A stretch of DNA of 64,000 nucleotides. It comes from Cyanidioschyzon merolae. Taxonomy: Eukaryota. Below are positions 3 to 57,781 of the stretch, in pieces; position 1 is the stretch's first letter, and each line of letters opens with the position of its first letter. The notes under the pieces are model-generated. The model saw nothing but the letters and a program-made list of their open reading frames with translations. It searched no databases and had not been told where the DNA came from. A program made the translations under genes and the position numbers. The DNA lies in NCBI GenBank assembly GCA_000091205.1, contig AP006502.2. One strand, given 5' to 3'.

Positions 3-3000
3 CTGCCACACTACGGGCATCTTCTTGCCGGGACTATTAAAGATACAGTGACGCGCTATGCTTACCAAACCGGATACCAGGTTCCCCGGCGATTCGGTTG
101 GGATTGTCACGGCCTTCCAGTCGAGTACGAAATCGATCAGAAACTTGGCATTCGCTCACGGGAAGATGTTTTGAAACTCAGTATCGCAGCTTATAACGAA
201 GAATGCCGAAAAATCGTTCTACGATACTCGGGAGAATGGGAGAGGATCGTTTCCAGAATGGGACGGTGGATTGACTTTAAAAACGGATACCGCACCATGG
301 ACACATCGTTCATGGAATCGGTATGGTGGGTGTTCAGCCAGCTTCACAAAAAGGGACTAGTGTATCGCGGCTTCAAAGTCATGCCGTTTTCAACAGCATG
401 CAGCACGCCTTTGAGTAATTTTGAGACGAACTTGAACTATCGGGAAGTTCAGGATCCCGCGATCACGATTTCTTTTCCTGTGTTGAATGATCCTGATCAC
501 GCCTCGTTTCTGGCATGGACCACCACACCTTGGACTGTGCCTAGCAATGTCGCCCTCTGTGTTCATCCGGAATTGATATATGTGCGCGTTCGAGATCATT
601 CCCGTGAGGACCGGGTATGGATCCTCGCAGAGGCCCGCCTAGGTAGCATCTTCAAAATGAATGATGCACGGAAACACTCAAGTGCATGCGAATTTACGAT
701 CATCGCGAGGCATCACGGATATGAGCTTGTTGGTTTACATTACGAGCCTGTGTTTGATTATTACAAGGACTCGCGCTTCCGCGAGCTTCTCCGAGACCCG
801 TTCCGAGTCTTGGGCGATGATTTCGTGACCGCAGATAGCGGGACTGGTGTCGTGCACCTCTCGCCAGCTTTTGGTGAAGACGATTATCGAGTCTGCATGA
901 GAGAAGGAGTGATCGGCTGTGCAGGAGGAAGGCCGGACCGACCTGTCTGGTTACCGTGCCCCGTGGACGAAGATGGCAAGTTCACAGAACCTGTGGATGA
1001 TTTTCGTGGGATGTATATCAAAGAGGCAGACCGGGGTCTCATACGTAAGATGAAGACCCTCAGTCGACTCGTGAAGCACGAGACCTACACCCACTCTTAC
1101 CCTTTCTGCTGGCGCAGTGATACGCCACTGATTTATCGCGCCGTTCCGTCGTGGTTCATAGCTGTTGAGAAATTCAGGGATCGCCTCTTGGATTGCAATG
1201 CGAGAACCTACTGGGTGCCGGAAGTGATTCGGGAACATCGTTTCGCGAACTGGCTTGAGAATACACGCGACTGGAACGTAAGCCGGAACCGTTACTGGGG
1301 CACGCCTCTTCCCGTGTGGACGGATCGTACCGGCGATGAAATCATTGTCGTTGGATCGATTGCTGAGCTCGAAGAGCTTGCGGGTCTGCCCACGGGCTCG
1401 ATAAGTGATTTACACCGCCATAACATAGACTCGATCGAGATACGAAGCCGGCAGAATCCAGGAAATGTGTTACGACGAGTGGAAGAAGTCTTTGACTGTT
1501 GGTTTGAGTCCGGCGCGATGCCGTATGCAAGCGTTCATTACCCATTCGAACATGAAGAAGATTTCTTCCAGAAAGGCATGTTCCCCGCGCAGTTCATCGC
1601 TGAAGGTCTGGACCAAACACGAGGATGGTTCTATACGCTCATGGTGCTCGGAACTGCGCTATTCAACGAACCCCCGTTCAAGAATGTGATCGTGAATGGC
1701 CTCGTTCTTGCTGAAGATGGAAAGAAAATGAGCAAACGTCTGAAAAACTACCCAGATCCGATGGATATGATAGAGAATTTTGGAGCTGACGCCTTGCGCT
1801 TGTACTTGATCAACTCCCCTGTGGTTCGTGGGGAGCCTCTTCGTTTCAAGGAGACTGGAGTCAAGGACATCGTTCGAGACGTGATGTTGCCTTGGTATAA
1901 CGCTTTTAGATTTTTCATCCAGAACTTTGCAGCATTCGCTGAAGCCAACGCGGAAGCGGACACGCTTCTTCGTCAGGCAAAAGGCACGACTGAGCGCAGC
2001 AACCCCATGGATCGCTGGATTTTATCCCTCTTGGCCTCCCTGATCAGTTTTCTTCACAAAGAAATGCGAGCCTATCGCCTGTACACTGTGGTACCCCGGT
2101 TACTCCTTTTCATCGAGTCGCTCACGAACTGGTATGTGCGTCTGAATCGACCGCGGCTGAAAGGCTCAGGCGCTCGCTCAGCTTTGGATCAGGCCGTAGC
2201 GCTTTGTACGCTCGGGGACTTGTTGAGCAGACTTGCGGTTCTTATGGCGCCTTTTGCTCCATTCATGGCTGAATGGACGTATCAGACGCTCCGCAGCCTT
2301 CCTCTGGTAAGCTTATATGAGCAGACCGCAGACTCGGTGCATTTCCTGCCTCTACCTTCAAGTGACGAGGAAGCGGTTGATCTCGTCTTTGAAGAAAAAG
2401 TGCGCCACATGCAGCTTGCAATCACACTGGGAAGAGCCATACGAGAGCGACGCAATGTCGCTCTCAAGCAGCCCTTGCACACGCTGACAGTGATTCATCA
2501 CAACGAGCAGACCTTGCAAAATGTTGCGAGTCTTGAGGAGTACGTCCGGGGGGAATTGAATGTGAAACAAGTTGTGTACAGCACAGACGAAGACCGCTAC
2601 ATCTCCCGGAGGGCGATACCTGATGGCAAACTTCTGGGGCGGAGGCTTGGGTCAGCATTCAAGGAAGCAACTGCGGAGATTCGAAGCTGGACGCCTATGC
2701 AGGTCGCAAAAGTTGAGCGCGAACGCTCTGCAACTGTGTGCCAGGGCCGTTACCAGATTTCGGTTGATGAAATCTTCATTAATCGGGATGTCAACAGGGA
2801 GGCGCTCCGCGAAGGCGAGGACGTTGAATGCGACGTCTTGAATGGCATGATTGTCATCCTGAACCTCGGTATAGATCACGAACTTTTTCTGGATGGCATT
2901 GCACGGGAGATTGTGAACCGGGTGCAGAAGTTACGAAAGAAACTTGGCCTCGTCCCTAGTGATCGCGTCGATGTGTTTATCGAAGGTGGTTCTGTCGTAG

Positions 3001-3428
3001 AGCAAGCACTCAATAGCCGGGCCGATTTGGTCGGCAGTATGCTGGGATGCAAAAGACTGCTGTGCACTGAGGACCTGTCTTTGTTGCGCAAGCGGTTCAT
3101 TCCCCAGATCCCCTTGATCGCGCAAGAGCATGTCGAACCCCTTCAGGGAGACCATGTGTGCATTTCGTTGGTTCGCGCTGGTCTATGGCTACTCCCGAGT
3201 GCATTCACGAAGCGACCAGCTACTTTCCTCCATGCCTTGCAGTCGTTTCTTCTTGGAATTCGCGAGCGCTTCGCCGCTGCGAATGAGAACCCCAATATAC
3301 TGCGCGTCGTTCTGGACGGCGAGCGTTTGGAGCTTCACGAACACATCCATTTCAGTAGGTACGCTGCGGATATCGTTGCTGACTTGAAAGCCACCGCCCA
3401 GCACACAGCATCTATGGAAGCACGCTGA
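3..3428 (+). CDS. Isoleucyl-tRNA synthetase, eukaryotic cytoplasmic type. 5' end truncated by the window edge; the reading frame is open from position 3.
   Basis: The frame-3 translation begins LPHYGHLLAGTIKD, the class-I HYGH motif. It also contains WDCHGLPVE, the editing domain, a KMSKR-like 'KKMSKR' and a long C-terminal anticodon-binding extension. The 1126-aa ORF is continuous, with no introns. Confidence 0.95.
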   Translation: MPHYGHLLAGTIKDTVTRYAYQTGYQVPRRFGWDCHGLPVEYEIDQKLGIRSREDVLKLSIAAYNEECRKIVLRYSGEWERIVSRMGRWIDFKNGYRTMDTSFMESVWWVFSQLHKKGLVYRGFKVMPFSTACSTPLSNFETNLNYREVQDPAITISFPVLNDPDHASFLAWTTTPWTVPSNVALCVHPELIYVRVRDHSREDRVWILAEARLGSIFKMNDARKHSSACEFTIIARHHGYELVGLHYEPVFDYYKDSRFRELLRDPFRVLGDDFVTADSGTGVVHLSPAFGEDDYRVCMREGVIGCAGGRPDRPVWLPCPVDEDGKFTEPVDDFRGMYIKEADRGLIRKMKTLSRLVKHETYTHSYPFCWRSDTPLIYRAVPSWFIAVEKFRDRLLDCNARTYWVPEVIREHRFANWLENTRDWNVSRNRYWGTPLPVWTDRTGDEIIVVGSIAELEELAGLPTGSISDLHRHNIDSIEIRSRQNPGNVLRRVEEVFDCWFESGAMPYASVHYPFEHEEDFFQKGMFPAQFIAEGLDQTRGWFYTLMVLGTALFNEPPFKNVIVNGLVLAEDGKKMSKRLKNYPDPMDMIENFGADALRLYLINSPVVRGEPLRFKETGVKDIVRDVMLPWYNAFRFFIQNFAAFAEANAEADTLLRQAKGTTERSNPMDRWILSLLASLISFLHKEMRAYRLYTVVPRLLLFIESLTNWYVRLNRPRLKGSGARSALDQAVALCTLGDLLSRLAVLMAPFAPFMAEWTYQTLRSLPLVSLYEQTADSVHFLPLPSSDEEAVDLVFEEKVRHMQLAITLGRAIRERRNVALKQPLHTLTVIHHNEQTLQNVASLEEYVRGELNVKQVVYSTDEDRYISRRAIPDGKLLGRRLGSAFKEATAEIRSWTPMQVAKVERERSATVCQGRYQISVDEIFINRDVNREALREGEDVECDVLNGMIVILNLGIDHELFLDGIAREIVNRVQKLRKKLGLVPSDRVDVFIEGGSVVEQALNSRADLVGSMLGCKRLLCTEDLSLLRKRFIPQIPLIAQEHVEPLQGDHVCISLVRAGLWLLPSAFTKRPATFLHALQSFLLGIRERFAAANENPNILRVVLDGERLELHEHIHFSRYAADIVADLKATAQHTASMEAR

Positions 3429-3959: not shown

Positions 3960-6014
3960 CTAGGTATTTGGCTTCAGCGTCTCAAACAGCGCACTATAGT
4001 TCCGCGTTGGGATCCTGGTTGTGGGTGCGTACGCACTCGAGAACACATTGAATGTAACATTGCACGCACGTGCATCGAGCAGGCTCGCGACACATACATC
4101 CGCAACATCCGCCCGGGATATTTTTTTCGTGAATGGCGTTCGAACGATCTCCGATACAACGACGCCCGATGGGAGGCCTCGGCCCTGTATCTGACTCTGA
4201 TCGAACGTGATGCTGGTTACGCCGCCCGGTTCGTCAGTGAGCACACCAGTTCGTATAATGCAATAGGAGAGACCACCGGCTTTCAGCGCATCCTCGATGG
4301 ATCGCTTGCGGCTGATTTCTTCCATATCCGCGTGGGTGCCCATACAAGAAACGAGCACGAACTCGGGTTCATCTTGAGTACGGAAAGCTTTCATATAGTC
4401 TAGGGTAAGCATGAAAGTGCCCTTGCGGGAGCCAGGGTTACTAAGTGAGCGGATGCTCAAGTTATTTCGAGCCTCATAAAGGAAGCCGATTTGCGTGATC
4501 TCTGAAAAGTCGTAGACACTAGCATCGCGAATTTCTGCTTGCAAGAGGGCACCATCACTCGTGCGCTGAGGGATAAAGTCAGGGAACGAGAAGCGCAGCG
4601 TAATCCACTTTCTGGATGGAGTAGTAGAGAACGTCGAAATGAACTGGATGCCTGCCCTATCGCCGGACTTGGTTCGGATGATCAGCGAGTAGCGTTGGCC
4701 GTCACCGAGACAACGCAGAATCAAACCGGAGAATCCCTGGAAGTTCAGCGGTTTGCGCGCGAAGCTCGTTGTGAAGACCTCTGCTTGACCTCTATAAATG
4801 TCGCGTATTTTTCCATGAAAAACAGCGTTACCAAAGTCGTTCAGTTGGAAGAAAGTTGACGAAAGTGGATCCCGCAGGCGCCCGCTCTCTTCCATTGCGG
4901 CCTGCGGCATTACTGGAGCGCTCTGGTCCTCATTATTATCCTGGAGAAGCTGGTCCACGTTACCCACTTCATTCTGATAAGCCTTGACAACAGCAGTTTG
5001 AAGATTTTCAGGACGCGCCCACAGTGCAAAATGTCTAGGCTTGTTAAACTTGAAAATCGTAATTTTGGCCGAGTCCTTGCGACCAAACTCCAAAAACCTC
5101 GCATCTTGGAATGCTCGAATTAGGTTTGTGATGGCCTCCGTCTCACGCTCCGACTCGTCAGAAACCACACATATTACTTTATCGACACCGTACAGCGCCT
5201 CCAGTACGGAGTCCTTATCGAGTAGGTCCGCTTTTGCATACTCGCACCCGGTACCGAGTTCATCGAGTGTTTCAGGGCGCAGGTCCCGAACGAGTGCACG
5301 CACCCGGAAACCCTGGAGAAGTAGCTTGCGGACGACAAGGCGCCCAGTGCGTCCAGTTGCACCAGCAACGAGCACGAGCGGGACCAGACCCTCCTCCTCT
5401 ATGTTGTAAAGCTCTGGAGTTGGGTCTAACTTGCGCAGTCGCAGCTTAACCGGTGGCGCGCTCGTTGCGTCAGATAGCGGCGCTAGCCTGCGCAAACCCT
5501 CTACCACACTCTGAAACTGCCGAAAAAAACCGTCCAGGAGCATGTAGCCTTCCTGCTGGCGTTGCGGACCCGCAGAACGGAGGCGTCTCAGCCGCCAGCG
5601 TTGCCGAACCCTCAAGTCCGCTGTTCCGAGTTTTAGTTTCGGCTGAACTATTCTGCGGCAAAGCAGAAACCCGTCAGCACTAAAACGAGTCATAGCGTGC
5701 CCTCTAGGCCTAGAAGACGCCCCGGAGCTACTCGCAAACATCTGCACACGGTTGCAAGTTAGCTTCGGACGTGTTGCGGTATCTCTAACTGGGTACAGCT
5801 GAACCGGTGCGCTATGCGCACTCAGACGTAAAAATACCAAGAAAGCATAGCAGGGAACATACTCCAAACTCTGCTCCGCTTTAGACAACATGAACTCGCC
5901 GTAAAGAACTGCGTTCTTCTCACTTGACGTCGTATGGTGAGCAGGGAGCTCGGAACACCAGTGATCAGCATTCTTCGGGACTTTCAATCCAGTTCTGTTC
6001 CAACGGCGCTGCAT
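3960..6014 (-). CDS. Atypical SDR/NmrA-like NAD(P)-binding protein with an inserted CIA30 domain (HCF173-like). The true start is probably an internal Met near 5740 (MFASSSGASS..., transit-peptide-like).
   Basis: Rossmann motif VLVAGATGRTGRLVVRKL. The central block FFQLNDFGNAVFHGKIRD...YSLIIRTKSGD resembles a CIA30 domain. A second NAD-binding half is VLVSCMGTHADMEE...CIIRTGVLTDEPGG. Confidence 0.5.
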   Translation of the reverse strand: MQRRWNRTGLKVPKNADHWCSELPAHHTTSSEKNAVLYGEFMLSKAEQSLEYVPCYAFLVFLRLSAHSAPVQLYPVRDTATRPKLTCNRVQMFASSSGASSRPRGHAMTRFSADGFLLCRRIVQPKLKLGTADLRVRQRWRLRRLRSAGPQRQQEGYMLLDGFFRQFQSVVEGLRRLAPLSDATSAPPVKLRLRKLDPTPELYNIEEEGLVPLVLVAGATGRTGRLVVRKLLLQGFRVRALVRDLRPETLDELGTGCEYAKADLLDKDSVLEALYGVDKVICVVSDESERETEAITNLIRAFQDARFLEFGRKDSAKITIFKFNKPRHFALWARPENLQTAVVKAYQNEVGNVDQLLQDNNEDQSAPVMPQAAMEESGRLRDPLSSTFFQLNDFGNAVFHGKIRDIYRGQAEVFTTSFARKPLNFQGFSGLILRCLGDGQRYSLIIRTKSGDRAGIQFISTFSTTPSRKWITLRFSFPDFIPQRTSDGALLQAEIRDASVYDFSEITQIGFLYEARNNLSIRSLSNPGSRKGTFMLTLDYMKAFRTQDEPEFVLVSCMGTHADMEEISRKRSIEDALKAGGLSYCIIRTGVLTDEPGGVTSITFDQSQIQGRGLPSGVVVSEIVRTPFTKKISRADVADVCVASLLDARACNVTFNVFSSAYAPTTRIPTRNYSALFETLKPNT

Positions 6015-6959
6015 GTGATTGAGTGCTTTTTCGCAGTGTGGAGCAGGAGATCGACATCAGGATGCAATGCACCGTATAGATTGTAGACGACTAGCCTGTA
6101 GGATATATTTGTTACTGAAGCATGCAAAGAGGACAGGATTCCTCTTTCAGATCAGATATACAAAAGCACTCTGATGGATGAGAAACACTGAAATGAAGAA
6201 ACAAGAAGATGCTATCCGCGCCAAATACCGATATTGTGGAAGACTGCTCACGGTCAATGGTTAAGAACGAACTGTTGATCACCGTTCGCGGAAGGCAAAA
6301 GCGATGATCGTAGACGCCACAGGCGTCTCTGTCTCTCAGCACATTGTTCGCGTGGTTCTGAAAACACTGGGATACAGTTGAATTTCACGCATGGCTATTT
6401 TGCATCGAAATCGCAACCACGAGAACTTTCCTGGAAGGTCACGATCTGTATGAAGCACAGCAACGCCGGTTCATTGTTTCATTCGATGAGATTTGCTTCG
6501 GAAGAAACGATCGGAGCGTATATGGGTATTCACGGAAGGGGACCCGTTTTGCGTACGATCGAGCTCGTGGGCAACAAGGATATCATGTTTTGTTCTAGCT
6601 GCAGAGCATTCATTTGGAGGCCTCAGTTTCGCTCGTAGAGAACGCTCATCCAACAGCTCCAATCACATCGTCCAAACATTGAAGACTTTTCACGTGACAT
6701 CTGGCAGTGTCTTTCCACTGGACACCGTGGCATTTCACCATTCCCCTCGTGTTCGAGCTTTTGCCGATTCTATCAGGGTAGATGTGCTTTTCATTCCTCC
6801 GTACTCTTCGTGGTTCAACCTCATCTAAAGAGTTTTTCGTAACGTGAAAAGGAATGATGGATCCCGTGGGTGAATCGCTGAAGCGTTCAGCATGGTGAAG
6901 CTAGGGCACACGTCTCTTTCTTCTCCAAGTCCTTCTAGCTCCGTGGGAGTTCCTCACCT

Positions 6960-8030
6960 AAAGGCAAAAACATGTACGTTCATTCTGAAGAAATGAGAAA
7001 TCCAAGGGAACGTTATGGATATGGGATTCCACGATCCTGGAATCCTTGTGAATATCAGCTGCCAAACAACAATAAAAGTCCACTTCTCATCGACCATTGA
7101 GCGAAAAAGAGCAAGCGACGAAGAAGAAAAAAGGAAATATGGGCGAGTAAGTGTGTGTGCCCGACGGGACGACGACGAGACCGTTGTGGCACAGAGGGCA
7201 CGATTTCGAGGAATTCCTGTATTGATGAGATCGATCGGCCGTGGCGCATTCACGGAGTTCGTGAACCGAGACCTCAACGCCGCCAGCAATATTAGAAGAT
7301 GTACGGTGCTGAAGACGAGACTGGAGAAGCTGCGACGATCCGACTTTGTGGGACAGCCTCTCAGGCTCAAAACGTCCGAGGAAATTCGAAGCCAAGATCA
7401 TCCGGTCGGTGGAAACAGGTTAGGAGGCGTCTGTGAGTGAGTACGCATTTACCCGCCATGCACCTAGAACCCTTTTGGTTTTACTGATCACATGCCGCGG
7501 ACGCTTGGTCGGAGGCCGAACTGGTCTATGATTAGAATCCAGCGCTGAACTGCTCGTTCTGTCTTTCCAATATTTTCCGAACTCTTACGAGGTGTCCAGT
7601 GCCAACATACCAAGCGCACCAATAAGCGCCTACGAATTCAAAAGTCCTGGGAGGACTCCCAGTCGTGTGTGTTCGGAGTGGCCCCTGCGACGCTTCGCCG
7701 CTGACATCCATTACTTCACCGGAATCAAGGTTATTCGCAACGCGCTCAGACAACGATTCCTAAAATAGCCCGTAGCATTGTCCAATGCATACATACAGGC
7801 ATCCAGTCTTCTCCGTTCCGTTTGTGTCGCACGTTCAATTCAGGCATTCGCCAGGTGTTCGGTCTCTCTTTTATTGATGCAACTCGTGGGCGCTGCCATT
7901 TGCGCTGACGGGATTGACGAAGAGAACAAGTCGACGTCGCCCGATGACGATTCCTTTCCGTGCTCGTCCCGAAACGCTGCTGAGCTCGTCACTTGCAATC
8001 ATCGAATCGGTTCAAAGGCGAACCTTCTAT
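6960..8030 (+). mobile_element. RF1 copy A, a Fanzor/TnpB-derived ~1 kb element. It has a conserved 5' leader (GTACGTTCATT...), the TnpB C-terminal RuvC-III remnant ORF at 7015-7440, and a 3' non-coding omega-RNA-like module at ~7560-8030.
   Basis: The ORF fragment ...FTEFVNRDLNAASNIRRCTVL carries the D-x-NAA-x-NI RuvC-III signature of TnpB/Cas12/Fanzor. The same leader, remnant and 3' motifs (for example CAACTCGTGGGCGC at ~7879) recur in the other copies. Confidence 0.6.
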
Positions 8031-8114
8031 GTTTGTTGCAATCGACGAGACGGAGCTCAACAGCAGCGCGATACCTCGCACGGGATATGCTCGCGGGGGC
8101 GCACATCTCTTCTG

Positions 8115-9245
8115 CTAGCACGCCAGCGAGTCCTGGACTTTGTCGAACGTCGTCGCAGCGATCTGTCCGAGCGCAGAGCGCATCAGCGCTTTGTACGAAG
8201 TGCGGCTGGGGAGATCGGAGTTTCGCAACTCCTGCACCAGCCTGGATTTCGTATACGGAACGTGTTTCATAATCGAAATATCGCGTTCCACGGATCCTCG
8301 ATCGAACGGGACAGTATGCGCGTGCGTATGCAGCTGACGGAGTATTCGCTCAGAATAGTCGCGCAGATGAAGCCCTTGACCACAGGGTACGTTACCGGTC
8401 GCGGAAACCGGAGCGAGCATCCAGCGGAACCTTATGTACCCGTCCAGCTCATGTACTGAGCCATGAAGCGAGCGTTCACGTGCTACAGGCCGGCCTTCGA
8501 ACGAGGAGCTGCAGTTGACACATAGGAAAACCTGACCTCGGTCAAGAGTTTCCGTTGGGAAGTGCGCACAGAGGCTATGTTCATGGATTACGACAGTAGC
8601 ACGTAAAATATATATTGCAACTACCGACCATGCACTAGGTGTCTCGAAAACAACCAGAAACTGTGAAATGATGACCTTACCGCTTCCGTCAACTTCCCTC
8701 GACTGCTGAGAACGGAGCTGATGGAACAGAAGAGACCCCCATCTTAAAATATCGAGATAAGAATGAGGCAACGTAGCAGCCGCGGGTAAACACCTCAAAA
8801 GCTGTTGTTGATTACAGCTGGCTGGGACCCACACGTCAGTGTGCATCCCCGTGTAATAGGAATGGGTCTCCTCTATCTTACCCTGACGTTGGTGCAGAGT
8901 GAAGAATGATGTATGCCAAACTTGAAAAGAGCACCATACCCGGAAAACTAATCCACATGCGTCCTTCTCACTCCCGGTCGTAAGCGTGCCAGCGCCAGAC
9001 GGCGAATCGTCTACATTCGGCGTTGCGATGAAGCGCTTCCGTTCCAGCTCTGCAAAGCGTTTTTCCCTTGGAGAATGCTTGCTGCACTTGGGCAGGCACA
9101 GCTGGAGGACCCACCAGTTCGAAGACTGGCCTTCGCTTGGCGAATAGGAAGCTGGAGCTCTCGTAAGGGCGTATTGGCTTGGGCTTCGCTTGCCTGCAGT
9201 TCGCGGAACCTTGGCTGCGACACGCGTTTGCAGGCTAGCCAGCAA
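8115..9245 (-). CDS. Hypothetical protein; no family recognised.
   Basis: 376-aa ORF lying divergently upstream of the EGY-like gene. A C-terminal Cys/His-rich block (IHEHSLCAHF...LCVNC) is present but could not be assigned to a family. Confidence 0.3.
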   Translation of the reverse strand: MLASLQTRVAAKVPRTAGKRSPSQYALTRAPASYSPSEGQSSNWWVLQLCLPKCSKHSPREKRFAELERKRFIATPNVDDSPSGAGTLTTGSEKDACGLVFRVWCSFQVWHTSFFTLHQRQGKIEETHSYYTGMHTDVWVPASCNQQQLLRCLPAAATLPHSYLDILRWGSLLFHQLRSQQSREVDGSGKVIISQFLVVFETPSAWSVVAIYILRATVVIHEHSLCAHFPTETLDRGQVFLCVNCSSSFEGRPVARERSLHGSVHELDGYIRFRWMLAPVSATGNVPCGQGLHLRDYSERILRQLHTHAHTVPFDRGSVERDISIMKHVPYTKSRLVQELRNSDLPSRTSYKALMRSALGQIAATTFDKVQDSLAC

Positions 9246-10709: not shown

Positions 10710-13700
10710 AGCCTATATCGGTTCGTCGGTGATACACAGAGTGCCAGTGCATACACAAATTAGCAAAAGATTTATGGAGTATTTGAAGGACAACTGGATT
10801 CAGTTTGATAGCGCTTTGCGACCGAAAGTGATTTTTCTAATGAACACGGGGATGATTCTGAAAAACGATGAAACTTGCAGTGCTTTGTGAGAATCTTTTT
10901 AGATTTCATGGATATGAGCACGGCCGTCGACAGGGTTTCGTATTCACCTGAGCAAAGCCCCGAATACGGTCACACATATGCAAAGGGAATCCATGTTGCT
11001 CCGGAGGCTGGCACTCTGCATGATGCTGGACGATCTACGTAGAGAATATCGTGTGATTGGTGTACATCCAGGCGAGACACTGGTCGAGCCTTGTGCATGA
11101 ATTCCTCTCGGAAGGCACAGGGCGTGAACGGAACTCAATCGACGTGATTGGCTTAACAGTGGCCCCAGACGTAAACGAGCAGCAGTACACCGTCCAAAGG
11201 ATAAACATGGATTGGCATCGTTGGACGTGTTCTCTACACCCGTTTCAGATTAAAATGGAACGGATCCGATCAATTAGCGCAGTAATAAACTCTAACGCTT
11301 CGGTTTCTTCTGATGGTCATCGACATCAGTCTTTACGGGGGGTTCCTGAGACTGGTTCCATTTTCTCTTGCTTATTCCCGAGTTTGAAAACGCTGGTCTC
11401 ACTTGCTTCCCCAGCTCCGTCGTCAGCAGCGAAAGGACGTTGAATGCAGCCTCAAAGTCCCGAGTTCGCAGCCTTCGACTGCTGTCGAAGCATTTCATGT
11501 CAAGGCGGAAGTTGCGATCCCCAGGTCGCGTGCCATTTTCAGCTTCCTTGTAAACAGCCTCTATGCGCTCTTCGCATCGGTTACACGAGGGTACGGTTGA
11601 TCCATATGTGCACTGCATATGCTTCATCGATGGCCGTCATTTGGCGCGTGAAACTTGCTTCGTGGCCTCATTAATGCCCTCGGCGGGAACAGAGGGCTTC
11701 CCTCCATGCCCTCCTCGGTACCCGCGCCCGATTTCGTAACTCACTACCATAGACTGTTTCAGGTCCATCTACTTAGCGAGTACTCTGTTTGCCGCACGTG
11801 CAGGTGCACGCGGCTCTGTTCGATAGAGAATCACTGAAACGTAAACTAATCAACTATGAGACAATTGCCAGAAGCAAAATCCTAGCTAGAGAACTAGCCA
11901 AGAAATTTCGATCTTTTTACGCTGTGTTTATGCAATGCTGTGATACATTCTCCTGTGGAAGTGATCTTTACGAGGAATCAAGTCCGAGCCAAAGATCCTT
12001 ATCCATGGAAACAGAAAAGACGGGAGCCGCAGTGAGCATAGCCCGTGAGAGGTATACTGCTACAAACGATTGCCGTCTCTTCGATGACCACAAACAGATT
12101 GTGATTTGTTTCTAGTACAGGATCAATTATTTGACGTGACATATTTAGCGAACGTTCGGCATAAGCTAGTGAACAAGTCTTCAAGAGGAGAAGTAGTGTA
12201 CGTTTTCTCGTCAATCCAGCAGCGCAACTTGCTGCACCAACGAATTGCCTTGAAATAGAAAGATCTAAGTGTGAATGGCAACGTGCTTTAAGCATGCTGT
12301 ACATAAGGGGAATAGAATAGTGTATCGCTGCACATATGCAGTGGACAATTGTATCAAACGTTTTACGAATTCTAATTCGACGACGTCGGGAATCGTCTTG
12401 ATTCCGGTCACCTGATGAATTCCAGCTGGAAAGTGTCGATAAAACCGCTCCGGAACTACGAGCTAGGATCCTAAAAATACGTATGAATCTCTATGTACTT
12501 ATTGATGCACTTCAAATATCGAGGCAGTACATCTAAATAACGTTCGAAACAAACGGAAAAGAAGGAGCAGACAGAACTGTTCAATGCTCTATATTAGGCT
12601 CACACCGGGACAGAAGCGAATGCAATATGCAGTTTTGATATTTGCGCTGTCTGTGATCAGCGCAAGCGAGTAGGATACACAAGAAGCGGGAGACGTTTAC
12701 GGCACAGTGCCATCATATACGGCAGGTCCTGAAATCGGGGAACAAAACAGGGTCCCTTTGCGCCTTTCGCATCACGCCTGAATAGTTGTCAAAAGCCCAC
12801 TGGTTGTCCGTGGAAAGAGCTCTTGACGAGCAGGGTCTGCGTTATGCAGGGGCAAAGTGGGGTTATAAGGCTCTTCTTCTGTACGGCGTACTACATTAGG
12901 GGCATTCAGTGGTACCCGCACGCTTCAGGTCGGGGTTCAAAATGCTCTAGCAAAAGTCTCATAGACTCGTACGAAGCTGATGTTTCCCAACCGCGTCGAA
13001 GCCCGTTCCCAACGTGATGGACTCACGGCGCAGAGGAGCACAGATTCCGTATTGCTGTATTTTGGGTTTGTTCAAAACGTGTTCGGGCTTCAGTGCACTT
13101 GCCTTTTGTTTATTCACTGTAAATGACAGGAAGCGCTCTTGTCCAGTCTTCATACGCAGCAGGTGTCGACGGTAGTTGTGCTTCCATATGCGGCAGCGTT
13201 CCCTGTTGCTGTGTCCGACGCGCGTTCCCAGCTGACTACGATCATAGTTGGATTCCATCCAGCGTCAAACAACGAGCAGCATACTACCTTACATCGCTTC
13301 GAACTCGCGTCTGACACCCAACACCTGCACAGCCCGCTCTGCGACGGAACTCTACGCGCCCTCATCCGATAGCGTTGCCCAGCTCCAACGCTGACGTTCC
13401 GCAACGAGCCTCTGCAGGTGCCCGCGGCGTTCAAGCCGGCGCAAGTTCAGCACATTGCCATCAATTACTCGATCCAGGTCCCTGCAAGCCCCTGAACATG
13501 GCCTGGAGCTCATGTTCACCTAAATATCGCCCGTTGCCCTCGGAGAATCATAAGAGATACCAACTTGAGCAGTTGCGGAGCTGTGCGCCTCCAGAGCACC
13601 CATCATCGCTGCACGGTGTGCTGAGGCAACGGCGGCGGCCGCTGCGATTCCCGGATCCCAGCGCATGGCGGCGGAATGCACAGGGCGCGCCTGAAAAACG

Positions 13701-18689: not shown

Positions 18690-19844
18690 GGTATGCATGA
18701 TCATGGAAAGTCATGCATTAGCATCATGAACGAGATACGGCTATGTAGAGGCTCCGCATGGAGCGCAGAAACGTCATCGAAAGGAACCGGCGAGCGTTAC
18801 GAAGCGATGTTTCCTGATTGCGTACGCGCTCATGGGGAGACCCATACCAGACGGACGGAAACCCCGCAGGGAAGGACACGCACACCAATAAACTGCAGTT
18901 CAGCTCTCACAACATGTGTCCCAATATCGATACAGCGCTCGCTGGAGTCCGCAGTCATTTCCTGCACCTGCTGCGTTGCCTATACCAGTAGCTGCTGAAT
19001 GGCCACAAGACCGTGGCGCACAGGTCACAATATCGTCTTCTACCTGAGAAAGCAACTTGCTTGATTGCTTGCTTGCTGGTTGCCTGTGCACATAGACGCA
19101 TGGATAGCCGCCTGCTTGCTTTTACGCACACATGCACACATGCATAGTTGGGAAGATGGATGGATAGGTGCGTTTGGTATCTTCTCTGCGCACCATCGCG
19201 GACATCGACGGCTACCAGGTCGCGATTTGCACCCTGAAGTACGAACGTGCGTTTCAGAGCTACTCCACGCTGCCGTATTCGAGAAATGCCTGCACCCTTG
19301 ACGCTGACGATTGCTTCGCAACAGCTGGTAGCGTTCCAGAACGACAGCCGCACCTGGCGCTTGGTGGAAGCACGCTCAAGGATCCTGGACACGAAGCGGG
19401 TGCGCAAGCTATTGAGCGTCTTGGAACTATTATCGAGAACGAAAAAACATAGAGCACAGGGATCGCCTCCGCTCTGGACGCGCTGAAGAAGGTCAGCACC
19501 GATCCCCGGTTGCACGTCGTTCCGAATCGTATCCTGCGTGTCCTGCTATCGGGGTTCTACGTGGCGGGCGGTGGCTGGCTAGCACACAGCACCATACCCT
19601 GTGGCGACTTGTGAGCTCACCGATATCCGCTCAACTGCGCATGATGCACCAGAACGTAGTTTCGCTCATGGGAACACAGATCGCGTTAACGCTAATCAGG
19701 CTCGCGCCTCAGCCTTCTGCCCTAAGCAAAGCAACGAGCATGTTAGACGTGCTGCGGACCTGGCACGTGCAGGATTCTTGTCATAGCACTTCACCTCAAC
19801 TGTGCTCTAGCGCCAAGTGCGTATCATTTAATGTTTTTTTTCGT

Positions 19845-20345
19845 GGTTTAGAGCAAATGCTCTCGAAGTGCGTTCATTTACAAATGTAAAAAGGCTAAGG
19901 TATAGAGATGGAAGTCGCGGATCCTAGAGGGCCTCATTGCCGGCTGTCCGAAAACAAGGAAAAAATCCTCTTTTCGCCGTTCATCGAGCAAGGGAAAGCG
20001 CGCGGCGGCGAAGAAAAAGAGGACAGGTAGACGAGAAAAGGTGCTCGCCTGACGGGACGAGGTCGAGACTGTAGTAGAACAGAGGACACAAGTTCGAGGA
20101 ATCCTTGCAATGGTGAGTTCAACCAGAGGCAGGGTACGCATAGAGTTCGCGAACCGAGAGTTTAACGCTGCTATCAACATCGGGAGATGTGCAGTGCTGG
20201 ACAAGAGACCCCCGGAGCTGATACGAGCCGACTTTGTGGGAGAACCTCTCAGGGTCGAATTGTACGGGATGACGTTGCAACCAGTAGTAGGCGGCCGGTC
20301 CAAAAGACGGGAAGGCGTCTGCACGTGAGTGGGTAGACATCCAGT
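19845..20345 (+). mobile_element. RF1 copy B, 3'-truncated. It has the leader GTGCGTTCATT and the TnpB RuvC-III remnant at 20110-20328, but no 3' module. The RF2 repeat follows ~270 bp downstream.
   Basis: ORF MVSSTRGRVRIEFANREFNAAINIGRCAVLDKRPPELIRADFVGEPLRVE.... The leader DNA is homologous to copies A and C. Confidence 0.6.
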
Positions 20346-20612
20346 CTACGCTTCTAGGCATAAAGTCCAGGGAAGCGGATGCGTACACGGGCACAGTGCG
20401 CTTTCTGCGTCTGCCCATTGGTTGGTGTCAAGCACAAACCCGCATTGCCAACCGACAACAACGCATTCCATGCATGATCACGAAGGAGAGAGGCGGCTCC
20501 CAGAATGTATCCTAACAGCCAAGTTTCTCCAGCGTGTCGTGCAGCGAAGGCAAGCCTGCATCCGCAGACTGTCCAAGCACAAACTGACGACGAGATCCGA
20601 TTCTACTTCGGT

Positions 20613-20900
20613 TGAACCACGCCTCGAGCCGACGCCCTCTGTGGTATAGAAAAACTGTTCTAGCTCGGTGAACTATCTGCTCCAGCATTTAAGGTGCAAA
20701 GGCGGACACGGAAAGGCAGGTAGTAGGCACACACAATAGGACATGTGAAACGACCAGAATATCCGAGAAAAAAGTCTGGGGAATGGAGCTTGGAAGCAGG
20801 GCATTTAATGGATACCTCACCGCGCACTGAAAAAAAACACAAAAAAAGTAAGAAGAAATGCACATAATCGGAGAACGCTGCCCCAAGTAAACGTTTTGTC
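20613..20900 (-). repeat. RF2 repeat, copy 1 (minus orientation), ~285 bp, directly upstream of the PGM gene.
   Basis: Its reverse complement matches the 41387-41670 and 57363-57635 copies: AAACGTTTACTTGGGGCAGCGTTCTCCGATTATGTGCATTTCTTCTTAC, a long T-rich tract ending in ...TTTTTTTTCAGTGCGCGGTGAGGTATCC..., and ...TACCACAGAGGGCGTCGGCTCGAG. Confidence 0.7.
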
Positions 20901-21037
20901 GATGAAAAAATCCAGTCTACGGCCGGCGGCGCGCCGCTCGCGACGAATGCATACCGACCATACAGCGTTTGTCGCTAAGAAGGCATTTGCTGTTGTCTGC
21001 GGCGGGTGCCCTGACGAGCAAACTTTTCTTCTTTTTG

Positions 21038-22804: not shown

Positions 22805-23379
22805 GTGTAGTGGATCCCAACACACCTTAGTAGAGATTGCGCATGACTGCCAAAAGGCGCTTTATTGCCTATCTATCGGAGAAAGGTTTCCCATAGAACG
22901 TTCAAGCAATATTTTGGTGCTTGTATCAAGTCGACTTTGAACAAGCATCTGCGCTCTGCACAACGGAGACTTGTGAAAAGGGATTGGTCGAAACTAGCCA
23001 GAATTCTGCAGATTTGCTGCAATCTTCAGCTGCCAAGTCAGTATAAAGAGTAAGTTGCATGAGAGTTCCCTGCTTTGTGAAAGTGATGATCTCGTACAGT
23101 GCAAATATATTTCGAGACTGCGATACGCGATTGTCGTTGGTCATCCAGAGACGCAAACTGCCATGAAACGTCAGACCTCGCCGCTGCACCTATGTCAATT
23201 TAAACTGGGACAATGAACCGCTCGCTCTGTTCCTGCCTTTCGAGTTTTTCAGAACATTTTTCTAGATGCACCATATCGACTTTCAAAGAGTAGCAATTAG
23301 GGCTCACGATTGCATATTTAGTTTTATGATGCTATGTTGTCTTTTCGGAGCGGCTCCTTCGATCTTTTTTTTGCACGTG

Positions 23380-23700
23380 GAATTTGTTGCGTTTCTGGAC
23401 TCAAGATGATTCGCGACGCGTTCGAACAGCGGTTCGTAAAATACAGATATTATTATTCAGGGCATATATAAGGGTCTCCACTGCTCGTATTTTCTTCCAT
23501 CTAGCATCCGATGGTCGCGGATTCTTCAAGCGTTCGACCTTTCTGTATCAACGCAACTCGTGGGCGCAGGAATTTGCAATTACTAGATTGACAAGGAAAT
23601 AACACTCGACGCTATCCTTTGACGACTGCTTGGGAAGCTGACGCCGAATGTTCGATGAACTCGTCAAGTCAAATAATTTATTGCGTTCGAAAATCGAATC
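23380..23700 (+). repeat. Solo RF1 3' module (omega-RNA-like non-coding module), lying between PGM and MED6.
   Basis: CTGGACTCAAGATGATTCGCGACGCGTTCGAACAGCGGTTCGTAAAAT...TTCAAGCGTTCGACCTTTCTGTATCAACGCAACTCGTGGGCGCAGG...GTCAAATAATTTATTGCGTTCGAAAATCGAATCC. Confidence 0.6.
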
Positions 23701-24899
23701 CTCCTCGCCTTGCGGTCATCGACGAAAGGGGAGTCCAAATCAACGTGATACTTCTAACGGGATGTGCTCAGAGAGGCTCATGCCTCTTCTGTTTGCGTGG
23801 AAAAGGGGTTCGCGGCTCGGCCGAATCATCGCAGGGATGCTTTCCCGATGAGACTGCGTCACTGCTTCCCAAAATGAGCGCATCGACGGATCGTCATCTG
23901 TCGACATGTTTCCTGATCAGGTTTTTTTCTTTCGTTTACTAGTTCCACCATGGGAAACATCACTTTTCGCAAACCCTCTATCGAATGGAACGGCATGCGC
24001 TTGCATGTGCAGCGGAAAGAGTACTCGCCGAGAGAAGTGCCCAGACGAAGCCTTTGGCCGTACGGTACGGGGCCGGGCACGGCAACAGAAGTGGGCATCG
24101 CGCGGAGCCTCCGGCACCTGTCAAGGGCATGTACTGAAAGATGAAGCAAGCATTCATATGCAACCGAGCGACCATTGGACGGTTGGATTCTGTGGACTTA
24201 TGGGAACACCTGATCATACGCGATCGTAACCGTTGCGAATAGGGCACCGAATCTGCATTCAAAGAAGACAAAAATGGCAAGCGAAGCGTAGATCCCGACT
24301 ACCTCGTGTACATGAAAAGCTCTGCCCACAGTCGGCAGCAGCCAAACCAGGAGTACAATTCTGCCACCAATATCCTTGCATTGCTCAGAACGGAGAGGAA
24401 CTGCCTGGGAACTCCGGCGTATGTAGAGTGTGAGCTAAGAAAGCGATCAAAAGAAGCAGTCTTAGAGATGCCTGCGTAGCCTGGTGTTAATCTCAAAGAA
24501 AGAAGATCCAAAATGCAGTGCGTTCGATTGTATTAAAGGACCTTTCCCATTTTTCTGACATGTGTGCATCAGTAGCGAAAGAAGAGACTTCTAGAAACCA
24601 AGCCGCTTTTGATGGCGATAGCAGGTCTTTCATTTGCCGTCGCAGGCAGCTATACGATAAGTCGGATCGTTGTTCTTATCGGAAACGGCCTGAAACTTTT
24701 TCATGCTGGTGCAAGCGACTGAGTTTTGTCGTTATCGGTCAGAAGCAAGCACCAAAGGAAACTACAGCTGAGACCCGCTCCCCAAGCTACGTCTTGGTTT
24801 CGAGAGAGTTTGTCCGGCGTCATCTCGAGATCGAAACCGCTTAGCCAAGGTGTCCGGGGTGCTCCAAGTTGACCACTCGGCACTATAGGTGATTGACAG

Positions 24900-32349: not shown

Positions 32350-33240
32350 CTACTCACAGGCGCTTCCCAGCCTTTTTGATTGGCTCCCTGCTATCGTCTT
32401 CAGTTTTTCCCTGTGCACTTCCAGCCTGAGAGGCTGTCCCACACATTTGGCTCGTGTCAACTCCGGGTGTGTCGTGTTCAGCACCGCACATATCCTTATA
32501 ATGAAGACGGCGTTGGCGTCCCGGTTCTCGAACTCTATGAGTTTCTTGCCGATGCCTGTACGCACCCGTGCGAGGAGTCCTGGAGCTCGCGCCCTGTATA
32601 CCATTTGCTGCTCAGTCAGCGCAATGTACTTTTCCATCTCCGAAGTGCTCCGCCGGATTTCCTCCATCGCGACCTTCTGAAGTGCGCAGCCCAGATCATA
32701 GTGTATACATACGATGTTCGGATCTCATCTATCCGTACCGTTACGAAATGATGTGCGCACTCCTCGTTCAATCGCGTAGATGGAGCGAGCATGCTCCCTT
32801 TTTTGGACGCCCGGCGTCTTGCTCCATCGACGAGAGCATACAAGGAGTGCGCATATCACGTCAACGCGGTACCGATAGACGACTTCCGAACATCGTACGT
32901 ATATACTATGATCTGGGCTGCGCACTTCAGAAGGTCGCGATGGAGGAAATCCGGCGGAGCACTTCGGAGATAGAAAAGTACATTGCGCTGACTGAGCAGC
33001 AAATGAAGAGGAGGGCGAAAACTCGGGGACTGCTTGTATTGGTGAGTACAAGCGGCGGCAAGAAACGCATGGAGTTTGTGAACCGAGACTTTAATGCTGT
33101 TATCAATACCAGAAGATGTGCGGTACTGGAGAAGAGACCCCCAGCGTTGACACGAGCCAAATTTGTGGGAGAACCTCTCAAGGTCGAATTCTACGAGAAG
33201 AAGTTGAAAACAGTCGTAGGTGGCCGGTCCAAATAGAAGC
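32350..33240. mobile_element. RF1 copy D, a ~900 bp near-perfect palindrome made of two head-to-head RF1 remnant arms (left arm 32350-32790 on -, right arm 32800-33240 on +).
   Basis: ORF 32350-32667(-) reads ...IEFENRDANAVFIIRICAVL.... ORF 32568-33236(+) reads ...MEFVNRDFNAVINTRRCAVLEKRPPALTRAKFVGEPLKVE.... The reverse complement of 32641-32720 is almost identical to 32893-32975. Confidence 0.7.
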
Positions 33241-33925
33241 GGAGGCGTCCGCACGTTGGTGTATAGACACGTCGAGTCTACGGCGGACGGACGCGCGCTC
33301 TTCGCGAAGGCCTCCGATCAGCACACGCAATATGCCCTGCGCGTAGGGCTTGCTTGAGGTGCAGACGTCGTTTCGATACGCTCTCGCTTTCGTGAACAGG
33401 CGTTCCTGGTGACGTTCATCTGATAACTAGGGTCTTGCACAATGCACAAACCGGCTTTCCTACACATAGGTTCACTCAGCTTGAACTCGGGCACCAGTGT
33501 GCGCTGGTTAAGGCCGTGTGCGAAAACTCACGCGAGCTGTTGCCGAGTGCTTGTGACGCAGAACCCAGCGTTCCGTGTGGCGCGCACCGGGACGAGCAGC
33601 TCTCACCACTGCAGGCTACGGACTACGAAATCGAGACTTTTCATGGCTTCTGGGCAGGTAGGTATCTTTACGCCGGTCGTCATTGTTGCGCGGGCAATTC
33701 TAGGGAAACAACGCTTCGAGAAAATTCGAGGTAGGGGCATTGCGCTCCACTCGCAGGCTATCACGAACTTTTGTAAGTTTGCAGGTGTCGACAATAAAGT
33801 TCGCCAAGGTCTCATTCGCATGGCGAAAGCGAATGGTAGCAAACTGGGTTTCCTGTCATGAAATGCTCTCTTCATAGCGGGATGAGCGACTCGGCTGCTG
33901 CGCGTGAAGCGCAGCTTGTGGATCC

Positions 33926-36425: not shown

Positions 36426-36453
36426 ATGGCAAAAGGAGCGCGTGCGTCACCGC

Positions 36454-37494: not shown

Positions 37495-37749
37495 TGCACC
37501 ACGACCCCGACCACCACCACCACCTCCACCACCAACACCACCAAGAACAGAGACGAGTGATTATGAAAACCGGAATAGGTGGTATGGATTCGGGTACGAA
37601 CGCGCTATGCGCGCTACGCCCGTGCGTAAGCTTGAATCCGAGTCCTGAGCGACTCGGTTTGCTCCGGTCTCCCCATGATTCATCGGTATTTCCATTCGAT
37701 TGTTTTCGATCTCCAAGTGCGTTGAATCAAATGCTTTTTCGTGGGTTGT

Positions 37750-38740
37750 AGCGGACGCGTTCGGAGTGCGTTCATTAGAAGAAATGAAAAATCAAAGGGA
37801 AAGGTACGGGCATGGAGGTCGCGGATGCTAGAGGGCGTTGATCGCCTGGTACCGAAAAGAAGAGGAAAAAATCCTCTGCTCGTCGACTGTCGCGCGATGA
37901 AGACCAAGTGACGAAGGCGAAGAAGAAGAGACAGAGAGGGAATCGTTTAGAAAACAGGTTTGTCTGACGGGATGATGGCGAGACTGTATTGGCACAGAGG
38001 GCACGAGTTCCAGCAATCCGTGCATTGGTGAGTTCCACTGGCGTCCATGCATGCAGGGTTCTCGTGAACGAAGACTTGAACGTCCGCATCCGTATCAGAC
38101 GATATCCGGTGCTGAAGAAAAGACCTGAGGAGACGATGCGATCCGAGTTCGTGGAGCAGCTTGTGACGCTTGTATTATGCAGGGAGAAATTGAAACCGAT
38201 AACAGTCTGCAGGTCGAAAAAGGCCGAGAAGCGCCTGCGAGGGGGTATCTATTTACCAACCACATTCGCACAGCGTTTTCCGTTTTATTCACGATATTCA
38301 TCGAACCTGCTTCACATGTACGGCCTCGAGATTCCAAGTGCACCAAATAGGGTTTACAGCTTCATACCGAGATCCTTGGTTCTCGGTCGTGTTTTTCGAG
38401 TGGCTTCTTCGAATCTCTGCATCTGGAATTCGTTGTGTTACTGGACTCAAGATGATTCGCGAAGCCCGCGAACAACCATTCGTAAAGCAACCGATATCAG
38501 TAAGCCATTGATCCATACAAACCTCCGGTCTGCTAATTTCCAAATGCAGAGCATTCTCGACTCATGCCTGCTTCGAGTTTTCGATGTTTATGGTTCAGGG
38601 CAACTCGTGAGCAAAGCGATTTGCGCCCTGGATTGACGACAAAAGCGGTCGACGTCATCCCGTGATGACTGGTTCACAAACTAGTATAGAGAGGTCACTG
38701 AAATTCTCCCGTCAAATAAACGATTCCGTTCGAAAGATGT
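37750..38740 (+). mobile_element. RF1 copy C, full length. It has the leader, a degenerate TnpB C-terminal remnant (37989-38260) and the 3' omega-RNA-like module (~38330-38740).
   Basis: Leader GTGCGTTCATTAGAAGAAATGAAAAATCAAAGGGAAAGG. The remnant reads ...VNEDLNVRIRIRRYPVLKKRPEETMRSEFVEQLV..., with the NAA degraded. The 3' motifs are CTGGACTCAAGATGATTCGCGA...CAACTCGTGAGC...GTCAAATAAACGATTCCGTTCGAAAG. Confidence 0.6.
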
Positions 38741-46030: not shown

Positions 46031-46099
46031 CGTCTTAAGTTTACGCACTAGGAAACCGTGGCTTCCCGTGCGGCTTTGTCAAGCACTGTTCGCGACCAG

Positions 46100-46500
46100 C
46101 ATGCCATCACCAGAGCACCTGGCGCCGGCCGGAGCCTTCAGCTTCTTTTACCGATCGTTTGATAGCGTCAGTCAAGATGGATCGGTTCTGGACTTCAGCT
46201 CCATCACGAGTGTTTTAGACAAAACGCCATCAGTATCAGATGATGTATGGTGATGGAGGTGCGACCTGCGGAGCTGGTGCGATCCAACTTTGGGCGGCAG
46301 CCTGCGAGGCTAGAGATATGCAAGGAGAGGCTGAAACCGATCGCAGTCGGCAGGTCAAAACAGGCGGGGAGGCGTCTGCAATTGGGTATCCCTTTACCCT
46401 ACATGCGCATAGGACATTTCTCGGTTTCATTGAGTATAAATCCGAACGAGCCCCTCTGTTCTAACTTTGGAGTATGCACTTAATAAAGTGCCTCCTCCAA
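46100..46500 (+). mobile_element. RF1 copy E, a partial copy covering the C-terminal remnant and tail region, with no 3' module.
   Basis: ORF 46247-46483 (...RLEICKERLKPIAVGRSKQAGRRLQLGIPLP) is homologous to copy C (...LCREKLKPITVCRSKKAEKRLRGGIYLP). The flanking DNA aligns with copy C at 38060-38260. Confidence 0.45.
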
Positions 46501-57635: not shown

Positions 57636-57781
57636 CGGTTGGGTGCAGGTATGCCGCCTGTTGCTGCACTCGGAGGCGTTTCCGCGCGGGATGCAGCACA
57701 GCGCGCCGTATGCCTGTTGCCAGCACGACGGTTATGTCTCATATAATATAACAAAAGACGTAAAAGTATATAATTGTTCTG

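Follow-up and report, generated by a model that had tools for sequence, protein, structure and literature searches.

Decayed relics of the Fanzor1 transposon CMe-1A on chromosome 20 of Cyanidioschyzon merolae, three of them probably from one old deletion derivative

What is the repeated sequence around positions 6960-8030 of a 64,000-nucleotide stretch of the red alga Cyanidioschyzon merolae (contig AP006502.2; the whole stretch is hereafter called the window), and where does it come from? A first-pass annotation, made from the letters alone, had described it as one member of a ~1 kb repeat family derived from a Fanzor/TnpB RNA-guided nuclease and reduced to the RuvC-III remnant. Our analyses confirmed the repeat and supported the Fanzor/TnpB derivation. 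The family is CMe-1A, a Fanzor1 transposon already published from this same genome, and the window adds to it decayed fragments only. We consider it very probable that the six window loci are dead relics of CMe-1A, and that three of them, copies A, B and C, go back to one ancient deletion derivative of ~640 bp.

A blastn search of the window with positions 6900-8100 as query returned five further loci at 67-77% identity: 19952-20259 (71%), 37766-38160 (67%), 32423-32535 (-), 33068-33188 (+) and 46225-46433. The peptide motif N[RK][DE]xNA[AV] was present in four copies, in the same strings that the earlier annotation had quoted. The degenerate DNA pattern of this motif matched six times against 1.15 expected, and none of 100 shuffled sequences reached six. 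In an alignment with ten longer metagenome homologs, D-x-NAA-x-NI and the RPPE.TR..FVGQPL block that follows it fell into one register in every copy, as the annotation had implied, with copy F too degenerate at the protein level for the RuvC-III register. The proposed homology outside the open reading frame (ORF), with a shared leader and tail, was also real, and the loci are copies of one element. The first “leader” proved to be the 5' untranslated region (UTR) immediately 5' of the ATG (CMe-1A ~868-905), the second the junction of an internal deletion, and the “tail” the final codons of the ORF.

Five ORFs in the window match proteins of C. merolae 10D exactly (BAM83254-BAM83257 and BAM83269; e.g., CMT283C), which places the window on chromosome 20. 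CMe-1A is the sole Fanzor family given for C. merolae in the 2013 table of Bao and Jurka (Mob DNA 4:12; PMC3627910). It was described there as having ~150 copies at ~80% identity to the consensus, a length of ~3 kb with some copies intact, no terminal inverted repeats (TIRs), undetermined target-site duplications (TSDs) and a single Fanzor1 ORF of 734 aa, and the first 5' 635 bp of its consensus were identified as another repeat, TE-N2_CMe (PMC3627910). We took the 3169-bp consensus from Additional file 2 of that paper and compared it with the window by blastn. All six loci were colinear with it, their best-matching stretches being 70-84% identical; the identities listed here for each copy refer to those stretches only. 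The copy coordinates were refined by nhmmer with a hidden Markov model (HMM) of 21 full-length copies from hot-spring metagenomes.

Copy A (5980-6049 and 6971-7487, interrupted by an insertion of ~920 bp): 80%, CMe-1A 2903-3012
Copy B (19783-20350 and 20910-20984, interrupted by a 559 bp TE-N2_CMe insertion): 75-80%, CMe-1A 840-969 (75%) and 2840-3099 (80%)
Copy C (37686-38291): 70-79%, CMe-1A 790-969 (70%) and 2908-2972
Copy D (32820-33311, +): 79%, CMe-1A 2652-3114
Copy E (32356-32819, -): 73%, CMe-1A 2613-3083
Copy F (46224-46433): 84%, over 32 nt only, CMe-1A 3054-3085

Across the last ~260 coding nucleotides, the identity of the window copies to the consensus was 64-83%. Together the six copies cover ~2.96 kb, or 4.6% of the window.

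Connecting these fragments to Fanzor1 proteins required a detour through longer relatives. The window fragments sit mostly downstream of the region covered by the Pfam OrfB and Cas12f1-like_TNB models, and the profile search that the annotation had proposed, of the fragments against the OrfB models, gave no match. Searched with the best-preserved copy as query, a set of 5.8 billion proteins yielded 50 short unannotated matches, the longer of which reach N-terminally through “IPIDEFRTSY”. One metagenome contig, L002, has a single frame of ~680 codons, interrupted by stops, with “FVVGADPGNTN” (RuvC-I), “IPIDVFRKSY” (RuvC-II region) and “FVNRDFNAA” (RuvC-III). With that frame as query we recovered intact relatives, namely P0051 (752 aa, 66% identity) and more distant proteins of 600-700 aa; two of the distant relatives, P0124 and P0125, match Pfam PF07282 (Cas12f1-like_TNB) at 6e-7 and 1e-6. 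The L002 conceptual protein on its own matched nothing in Pfam, nor in the PDB by phmmer. A Fanzor1-family profile of 22 full-length relatives (A1) was needed to link the family to structures: by hmmsearch it matched 9cf0 from Parasitella (E 5.8e-25), 8gkh from Spizellomyces (2.3e-18) and 9cer from Guillardia (2e-6), with the catalytic motifs aligned.

The same A1 profile, searched against the six-frame translation of the window, detected copies D (3.6e-17), B (4e-13), A (4.6e-9), C (2.4e-4) and E (4.2e-4) at C-terminal profile positions ~519-591, and RuvC-II pieces in D (4.6e-8) and E (6e-8) at positions 484-521. The window fragments, save the weaker RuvC-III segment of E, were also detected by a profile restricted to members of at most ~35% identity. 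A Fanzor/TnpB-type nuclease gene as the source of the fragments, as the annotation had proposed, was therefore borne out, since A1 matches both the solved Fanzor1 structures and the fragments themselves; neither of the two outcomes that the annotation had named as refuting its proposal came about. The parent carries a triad of GADPG, VDEFRTS and NRDFNAA in the CMe-1 consensus, P0051 and L002. No window copy has the complete triad in one ORF: by tblastn the N-terminal two thirds of the protein, RuvC-I included, were absent from the whole window, and the RuvC-II region was present only in D and E, as IDDFRTS in D. The annotation, which had stated that no copy contains RuvC-I or RuvC-II, was right on the former and, for D and E, wrong on the latter. 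A weak RuvC-I-like tblastn match at 46768-46905 (-), E 0.035, lies inside a copy of another repeat (RF2/3, below) and was judged to be chance. The CxxC...CxxC zinc finger between RuvC-II and RuvC-III has been lost in the CMe-1 lineage, which reads TSYTHHELGCTLQRVEMEKCQR there; the distant relative P0124 still has the cysteine pairs, as does the RF2/3 consensus. The window thus holds gene remnants, not genes.

How did copies A, B and C come to be so short? In all three, HMM positions ~156-445 are followed directly by ~2357-2640, i.e., one internal deletion of ~1.9 kb with its join at HMM ~444|~2358. In CMe-1A coordinates the join runs from ~1072 to ~2832, at the microhomology TGG..AAAG and in frame, fusing codons 1-55 (a basic N-terminus, ...DEMVV) to codons 643-734 (MERRAKVRGL... 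to the stop). The resulting mini-element keeps CMe-1A ~790-1072 and ~2832-3169, or ~280 nt from the 5' part of the parent and ~340 nt from its 3' end. Copy A is still open, as an in-frame ORF of 141 aa, and B and C have stops or frameshifts. Their parts, and the elements that have split A and B, are as follows.

5980..6049, + strand: first 5' piece of copy A (CMe-1A ~790-860; 5' sub-HMM 160-228, E 1e-4), cut from the rest by an insertion
6050..6970, + strand: foreign insertion of ~920 bp in copy A, not of the Fanzor family; homology resumes at 6971-6974
6971..7188, + strand: 5' UTR “leader”, ATG at 7015 and first ~55 codons (...DETVV) of copy A (nhmmer HMM 240-444); junction at 7183-7199
7189..7487, + strand: last ~92 codons and alternative 3' tail of copy A (nhmmer HMM 2359-2612, E 5e-24)
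19783..20074, + strand: 5' part of copy B, with 5' UTR, ATG at 19908 and first ~55 codons (nhmmer HMM 156-442, E 1e-19)
20077..20350, + strand: last ~92 codons of copy B, RuvC-III EFANREFNAAINI and start of the canonical 3' tail (nhmmer HMM 2359-2634, E 5e-54)
20351..20909, - strand: TE-N2_CMe insertion in the tail of copy B (CMe-1A 84-265 = 20800-20613, 74%; 5-18 = 20900-20887)
20910..20984, + strand: remaining 3' end of copy B, ...GCTAAGAAGGC (3' sub-HMM 49-127, E 0.005)
37686..37981, + strand: 5' part of copy C, with 5' UTR, ATG at 37812 and first ~55 codons, frameshifted (nhmmer HMM 159-445, E 1e-20)
37990..38291, + strand: degenerate last ~92 codons of copy C, VLVNEDLNVRIRI, and alternative tail (nhmmer HMM 2357-2608, E 4e-18), running into RF2/3

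The RuvC-III motif of copy A, EFVNRDLNAASNI, lies at about 7255-7293, and its alternative tail, which ends ...GGTTTTACTGA, is common to C, F and two metagenome loci, L013 and L080. The TE-N2_CMe insertion in copy B is flanked by a 12-bp direct repeat, ATCCAGTCTACG (20339-20350 and 20910-20921), which is its target duplication, and the canonical CMe-1A tail of B resumes after it. The insertion in copy A holds an ORF at 6493-6828 that encodes a fragment of a DDE_3 (Tc1/mariner/IS630-type) transposase (PF13358, E 4.9e-9; 36.6 bits against a cut-off of 28.6). That fragment ends ...LFIPPYSSWFNLI, and the insertion is single-copy, with no other match in the window.

The junction is not confined to the window. 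Metagenome loci L013 and L016 have the two halves side by side, at the HMM positions seen in A, B and C; for L080 nhmmer reported the 3' half only, from HMM 2343, and the locus aligns with the other mini-elements across the junction. The flanks of L013, L016 and L080 match none of those of A, B or C, and these loci are therefore not orthologous to them. Since the same junction stands at loci with unrelated flanks, we conclude that the deletion derivative was once multi-copy. Compared pairwise, the mini-elements show 62-68% identity, and their mismatches are spread over the three codon positions as 0.24/0.23/0.32, compared with 0.11/0.07/0.21 in full-length copies, which indicates long neutral decay. 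The annotation's view of a miniaturised, non-autonomous derivative accordingly holds for A, B and C, in which the 5' UTR and ~55 codons are fused to the last ~92. It does not describe D and E, which are 5'-truncated copies, or F, a 3' stub:

32356..32819, - strand: copy E, 5'-truncated (CMe-1A ~2613-3083), with RuvC-II and RuvC-III regions (nhmmer E 1e-77)
32820..33311, + strand: copy D, 5'-truncated (CMe-1A ~2652-3169; nhmmer E 8e-107; 79% to CMe-1A)
46224..46433, + strand: copy F, 210-bp 3' stub and alternative tail, recognizable at the DNA level only (nhmmer HMM 2453-2612, E 6e-13)

Copy D retains a RuvC-II region, AVPIDDFRTSY (frameshifted), the RuvC-III motif EFVNRDFNAVINT and its own 3' end, ...CTTCGCGAAGGC. 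D and E form a head-to-head palindrome with arms at 32374-32789 and 32818-33233 (416 nt, 78% complementary, 28 nt gap). Head-to-head pairs of 5'-truncated CMe-1A copies recur in the metagenomes (L032, L035, L040, L046, L052, L068, L069 and L081). There the reverse arm, ~q1715-2714, adjoins a forward copy from ~q1424, and the window breakpoints differ (~2613/2652). Such a difference points to fold-back or inverted duplication having occurred repeatedly at CMe-1A. A metagenome contig, L006 (JGI 3300009503, Ga0123519_10025948), is 99.46% identical to window positions 30435-37837 (7.4 kb), D/E palindrome included, and so comes from a near-clonal relative of strain 10D in that hot-spring sample. 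Copy F is 72% identical to C and 68% to A. Just upstream of it is a tandem duplication at 45821-46028 (103 bp x2, 88%), and a further one lies at 51895-52076 (76 bp x2, 95%); L013 630-1433 matches window 45403-46345 at 77-82%.

A second repeat, RF2/3, accounts for much of what had been attributed to the first. It has eight copies in the window by self-blast, which are 63-70% identical and make up ~7.8 kb, or 12% of the window. It is more abundant than the CMe-1A family and, it seems, more decayed:

7488-8569, + strand: RF2/3 copy, adjoining copy A
11413-12547, - strand: RF2/3 copy
23206-24400: RF2/3 copy
38292-39442: RF2/3 copy
42460-43568: RF2/3 copy
46638-47102, - strand: RF2/3 copy
59743-60787: RF2/3 copy
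62792-63354: RF2/3 copy

The interval 6960-8030 takes in the first ~540 bp of the copy at 7488-8569. The annotation had arrived at a unit of ~1 kb because A and C are colinear through the adjoining RF2/3 for at least 1.4 kb; the actual unit is ~0.6 kb, and 7488-8030 and 38292-38740 belong to RF2/3. Its figure of ~8% of the window was too high for the same reason, a second repeat having been merged into the first.

Individual RF2/3 peptides had no match in Pfam, and what the repeat encodes became visible only in a majority consensus of ten copies. This consensus contains the N-terminal two thirds of a DDE_3 transposase (PF13358, E 6.3e-10) and, downstream on the same strand, a Fanzor/TnpB C-terminus that reads “...VIVGYGTG...WEHLITVKCHRCEG...LCMKCV...NRDFNAAINIL” and has CxxC..CxxC. 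The C-terminus scored E 3.4e-4 with PF07282, which is below the Pfam cut-off, and 45.6 bits with the Fanzor1 profile at positions 470-593; intact-looking relatives of it occur in other metagenomes (P0189, P0190 and P0194). RF2/3 appears to be what an internal deletion left of a mariner-type element with a different Fanzor1 on board. Among the six mini or stub copies that have the alternative tail, four are within ~250 nt of an RF2/3 copy (sites 7477-7541, 38281-38300 and 46423-46440, and L016 6823-7685), the neighbour being in direct orientation in A and C and inverted in F and L016. This adjacency can be read as an insertion preference, a composite element or a duplication.

Several observations weigh against descent of the mini-elements from one mobile CMe-1A derivative, or against the Fanzor connection itself. 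Five of the six aligned mini-elements, as well as stub F, have a 3' tail unlike that of CMe-1A, and the parent 3' end is kept only in B and D among the window copies; the canonical 3'-terminal 15-mer and 18-mer were absent from the window with up to 3 mismatches allowed. Relative to full-length copies, the mini copies start ~140 nt further in at the 5' end, without the hairpins found there. Neither TIRs nor TSDs were found for the Fanzor element or its mini derivative, and because none could be defined, transposition as a free unit is something we infer rather than claim to have proven. The window peptides matched nothing in Pfam or NCBIfam at E<=10 beyond noise. Copy A with its adjoining RF2/3 sequence (6974 to at least 8391) is colinear with copy C and the RF2/3 sequence next to it (37766-39070), at a constant offset of ~30720; this pair could reflect duplication of a composite rather than independent insertion. 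Finally, explicit pair counts over the 3' region of 50 copies gave a covariation of 0.105 against 0.105 in shuffled alignments, i.e., no excess for a conserved RNA.

This last result bears on whether the mini-elements could be functional today, either through a small protein with a nuclear localization signal (NLS) and RuvC-III or as independent guide-RNA (fRNA) modules on which an intact CMe-1 Fanzor1 would draw in trans. TnpB and Fanzor systems encode their guide RNA at the 3' end, in a stretch that overlaps the ORF terminus and the right end (PMC10530073), and the mini-elements have kept this region. The 3' 299 nt of the CMe-1A consensus fold better than shuffled sequences (z -2.59, 3/200; internal coding control z +0.94), and the 141-aa ORF of copy A is intact. 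A guide-RNA module in the 3' region is plausible. Even so, a fragment without RuvC-I and RuvC-II cannot be a nuclease, the frames of B and C are broken, substitutions in A and C are near-even over codon positions, copies no more than 62-68% identical have tails that were replaced or interrupted, and a positive covariation term from RNAalifold with 15 copies had no counterpart in the pair counts on 50. We found no evidence of a present function for the window copies, which are non-coding relics and most likely do nothing today; current function is, in our judgment, very improbable. More serious is the reading that the copies spread by segmental or composite duplication, with mini-Fanzor and adjoining RF2/3 copied as a block. 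It would explain why the offset between A and C stays constant into RF2/3, why F and the L016 mini are both followed by RF3/RF2 in inverted orientation, and why RF2/3 is so often nearby. It does not fit B and the L013 mini, which share the junction but have no RF2/3 neighbour and unrelated flanks, nor the canonical tail of B, nor the star-like identities, with A and C no closer to each other than other pairs. We regard block duplication as rather unlikely, if worth keeping in mind. That the shared peptide strings are due to chance or to an unrelated host gene family could have been argued from the silence of Pfam and NCBIfam on the fragments and of the PDB, by phmmer, on a single relative. We rejected this explanation and give it practically no credence, as the DNA homology extends beyond the ORF with nhmmer E-values that reach 1e-107, the profile links the family to solved Fanzor1 structures and the loci match a published transposon consensus.

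Based on these considerations, we favor descent of A, B and C from a mobile deletion derivative of CMe-1A. An ancestral element of ~640 bp would have arisen when CMe-1A ~790-1072 became joined in frame to ~2832-3169 at the microhomology, would have multiplied as a non-autonomous element and then decayed neutrally, A and B later being split by insertions of other elements. Because CMe-1A carries no transposase gene, full-length and mini elements alike were presumably moved in trans; while active, the mini-element may have been mobilized by whatever acts on CMe-1A ends. The kept 3' ~340 nt, the guide-RNA region in TnpB and Fanzor, may also have let it benefit from Fanzor-guided cleavage or homing.

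The annotation had recommended searching elsewhere in the genome for an intact master copy. In effect that had already been done, the published family having ~150 copies with some intact (PMC3627910). Beyond the genome, we found at least 407 relatives in hot-spring metagenomes, with an intact ORF only in L005 and L009, and the family is large and mostly decayed. The full-length metagenome copies are 75-86% identical to each other and share a core of ~2.7 kb. Their 3' end is sharp, ...GTTCGACTTTCGAA[A/C]GGC; the next letters are mostly GTT and, in several copies, GTTG[A/T]TGGTG, which may be a target or guide-adjacent motif. The core 5' hairpin differs between subfamilies in a compensatory manner (GCGCTCAGTGAGCGC versus GCGCGGTCGATACGCGC in L002, L005, L012, L033, L056, L057 and others), and the core ends in a small palindrome, TTCGA-CTT-TCGAA (TTCTA/TAGAA in L065). 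The 5' boundary of the Fanzor element is blurred by subfamilies and by shared upstream repeats. An affiliation with Replitrons or Helitrons was considered and had no support; Replitrons have not been found in red algae. Just upstream of RuvC-I, most full-length loci have a 75-nt (25-aa) acidic tandem repeat of varying copy number (e.g., L005 11146-11450), with units such as PAMQEVEDNDFVVDEAKHEDEKEAG (L002) and ATQEVEDNDFIVDVTKHGDEKDADP (P0051).

TE-N2_CMe is present upstream of only some of the full-length metagenome copies. Copies of TE-N2_CMe in the window are at 20339-20921, 41373-41671, 57345-57636 and 61120-61163. The one in copy B has an A6/T6 run at one end, the 57.3 kb copy has an 11-bp duplication with one mismatch, and two copies end at the same internal point; these features suggest a retroposon similar to short interspersed elements (SINEs), and they also point to the published 3169-bp consensus being composite, with 635 bp of TE-N2_CMe joined to a Fanzor core of ~2.53 kb.

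As a discovery the locus carries little weight, since a paper of 2013 had already reported a Fanzor1 family in C. merolae along with its copy number and consensus protein. What may be new is modest and of some value for curation: a sub-family of deletion derivatives, a published consensus that looks composite, and a second, DDE_3-linked Fanzor lineage. It is possible, and we say so only tentatively, that two details are unreported: proliferation of the in-frame CMe-1A derivative of ~640 bp, and the DDE_3-fused Fanzor lineage RF2/3 that often adjoins the first family. The former, if true, would imply that the 5' UTR and N-terminal basic region together with the 3' ~340 nt are all that is needed in cis for a Fanzor and a transposase acting in trans to spread or retain the element. 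The intact relatives from a thermo-acidophilic alga (e.g., 752-aa P0051 or the 734-aa CMe-1 consensus) could be candidate enzymes for Fanzor mining; the window copies are not.

Among known systems, the closest is CMe-1A itself, from the same genome, with which the window copies are colinear and whose reported properties agree with ours (PMC3627910). The window differs in having no full-length copy, only the deletion derivative (A, B and C), a palindromic truncated pair (D and E) and a stub (F), and PMC3627910 describes only TE-N2_CMe, with no mention of a deletion derivative that joins 5' and 3' parts. The solved Fanzor1 proteins 8GKH (Spizellomyces punctatus), 9CF0 (Parasitella parasitica) and 9CER (Guillardia theta) are matched by the parent profile over RuvC-I, -II and -III, with D(P)G, (v)DEfrTs and nRDxNAA(i)N as the aligned motifs. 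Identity to them is low, however, and the CMe-1 lineage, known from sequence alone, lacks the CxxC...CxxC, while the window copies also lack RuvC-I. CRe-1/2/3 of Chlamydomonas, which are of Helitron2 type, and the bacterial TnpB-only or miniature IS200/IS605 elements likewise have no transposase of their own and keep their ends; the resemblance extends to the many CMe-1A copies that are 5'-truncated with the 3' end kept and to the subterminal hairpins at both ends of the full-length core. The CRe elements nevertheless keep the whole Fanzor ORF, of which the window minis have lost ~88%, and no Helitron-like termini, Rep gene or TSD have been assigned in CMe-1A elements. For RF2/3 the counterpart is PUl-1, a mariner/Tc1 element of Pythium ultimum with a Fanzor1 (PMC3627910), which has the same DDE_3 and Fanzor architecture; by comparison RF2/3 is internally deleted, highly decayed and ~1.3 kb long, in a species for which the 2013 table gives one Fanzor family only.

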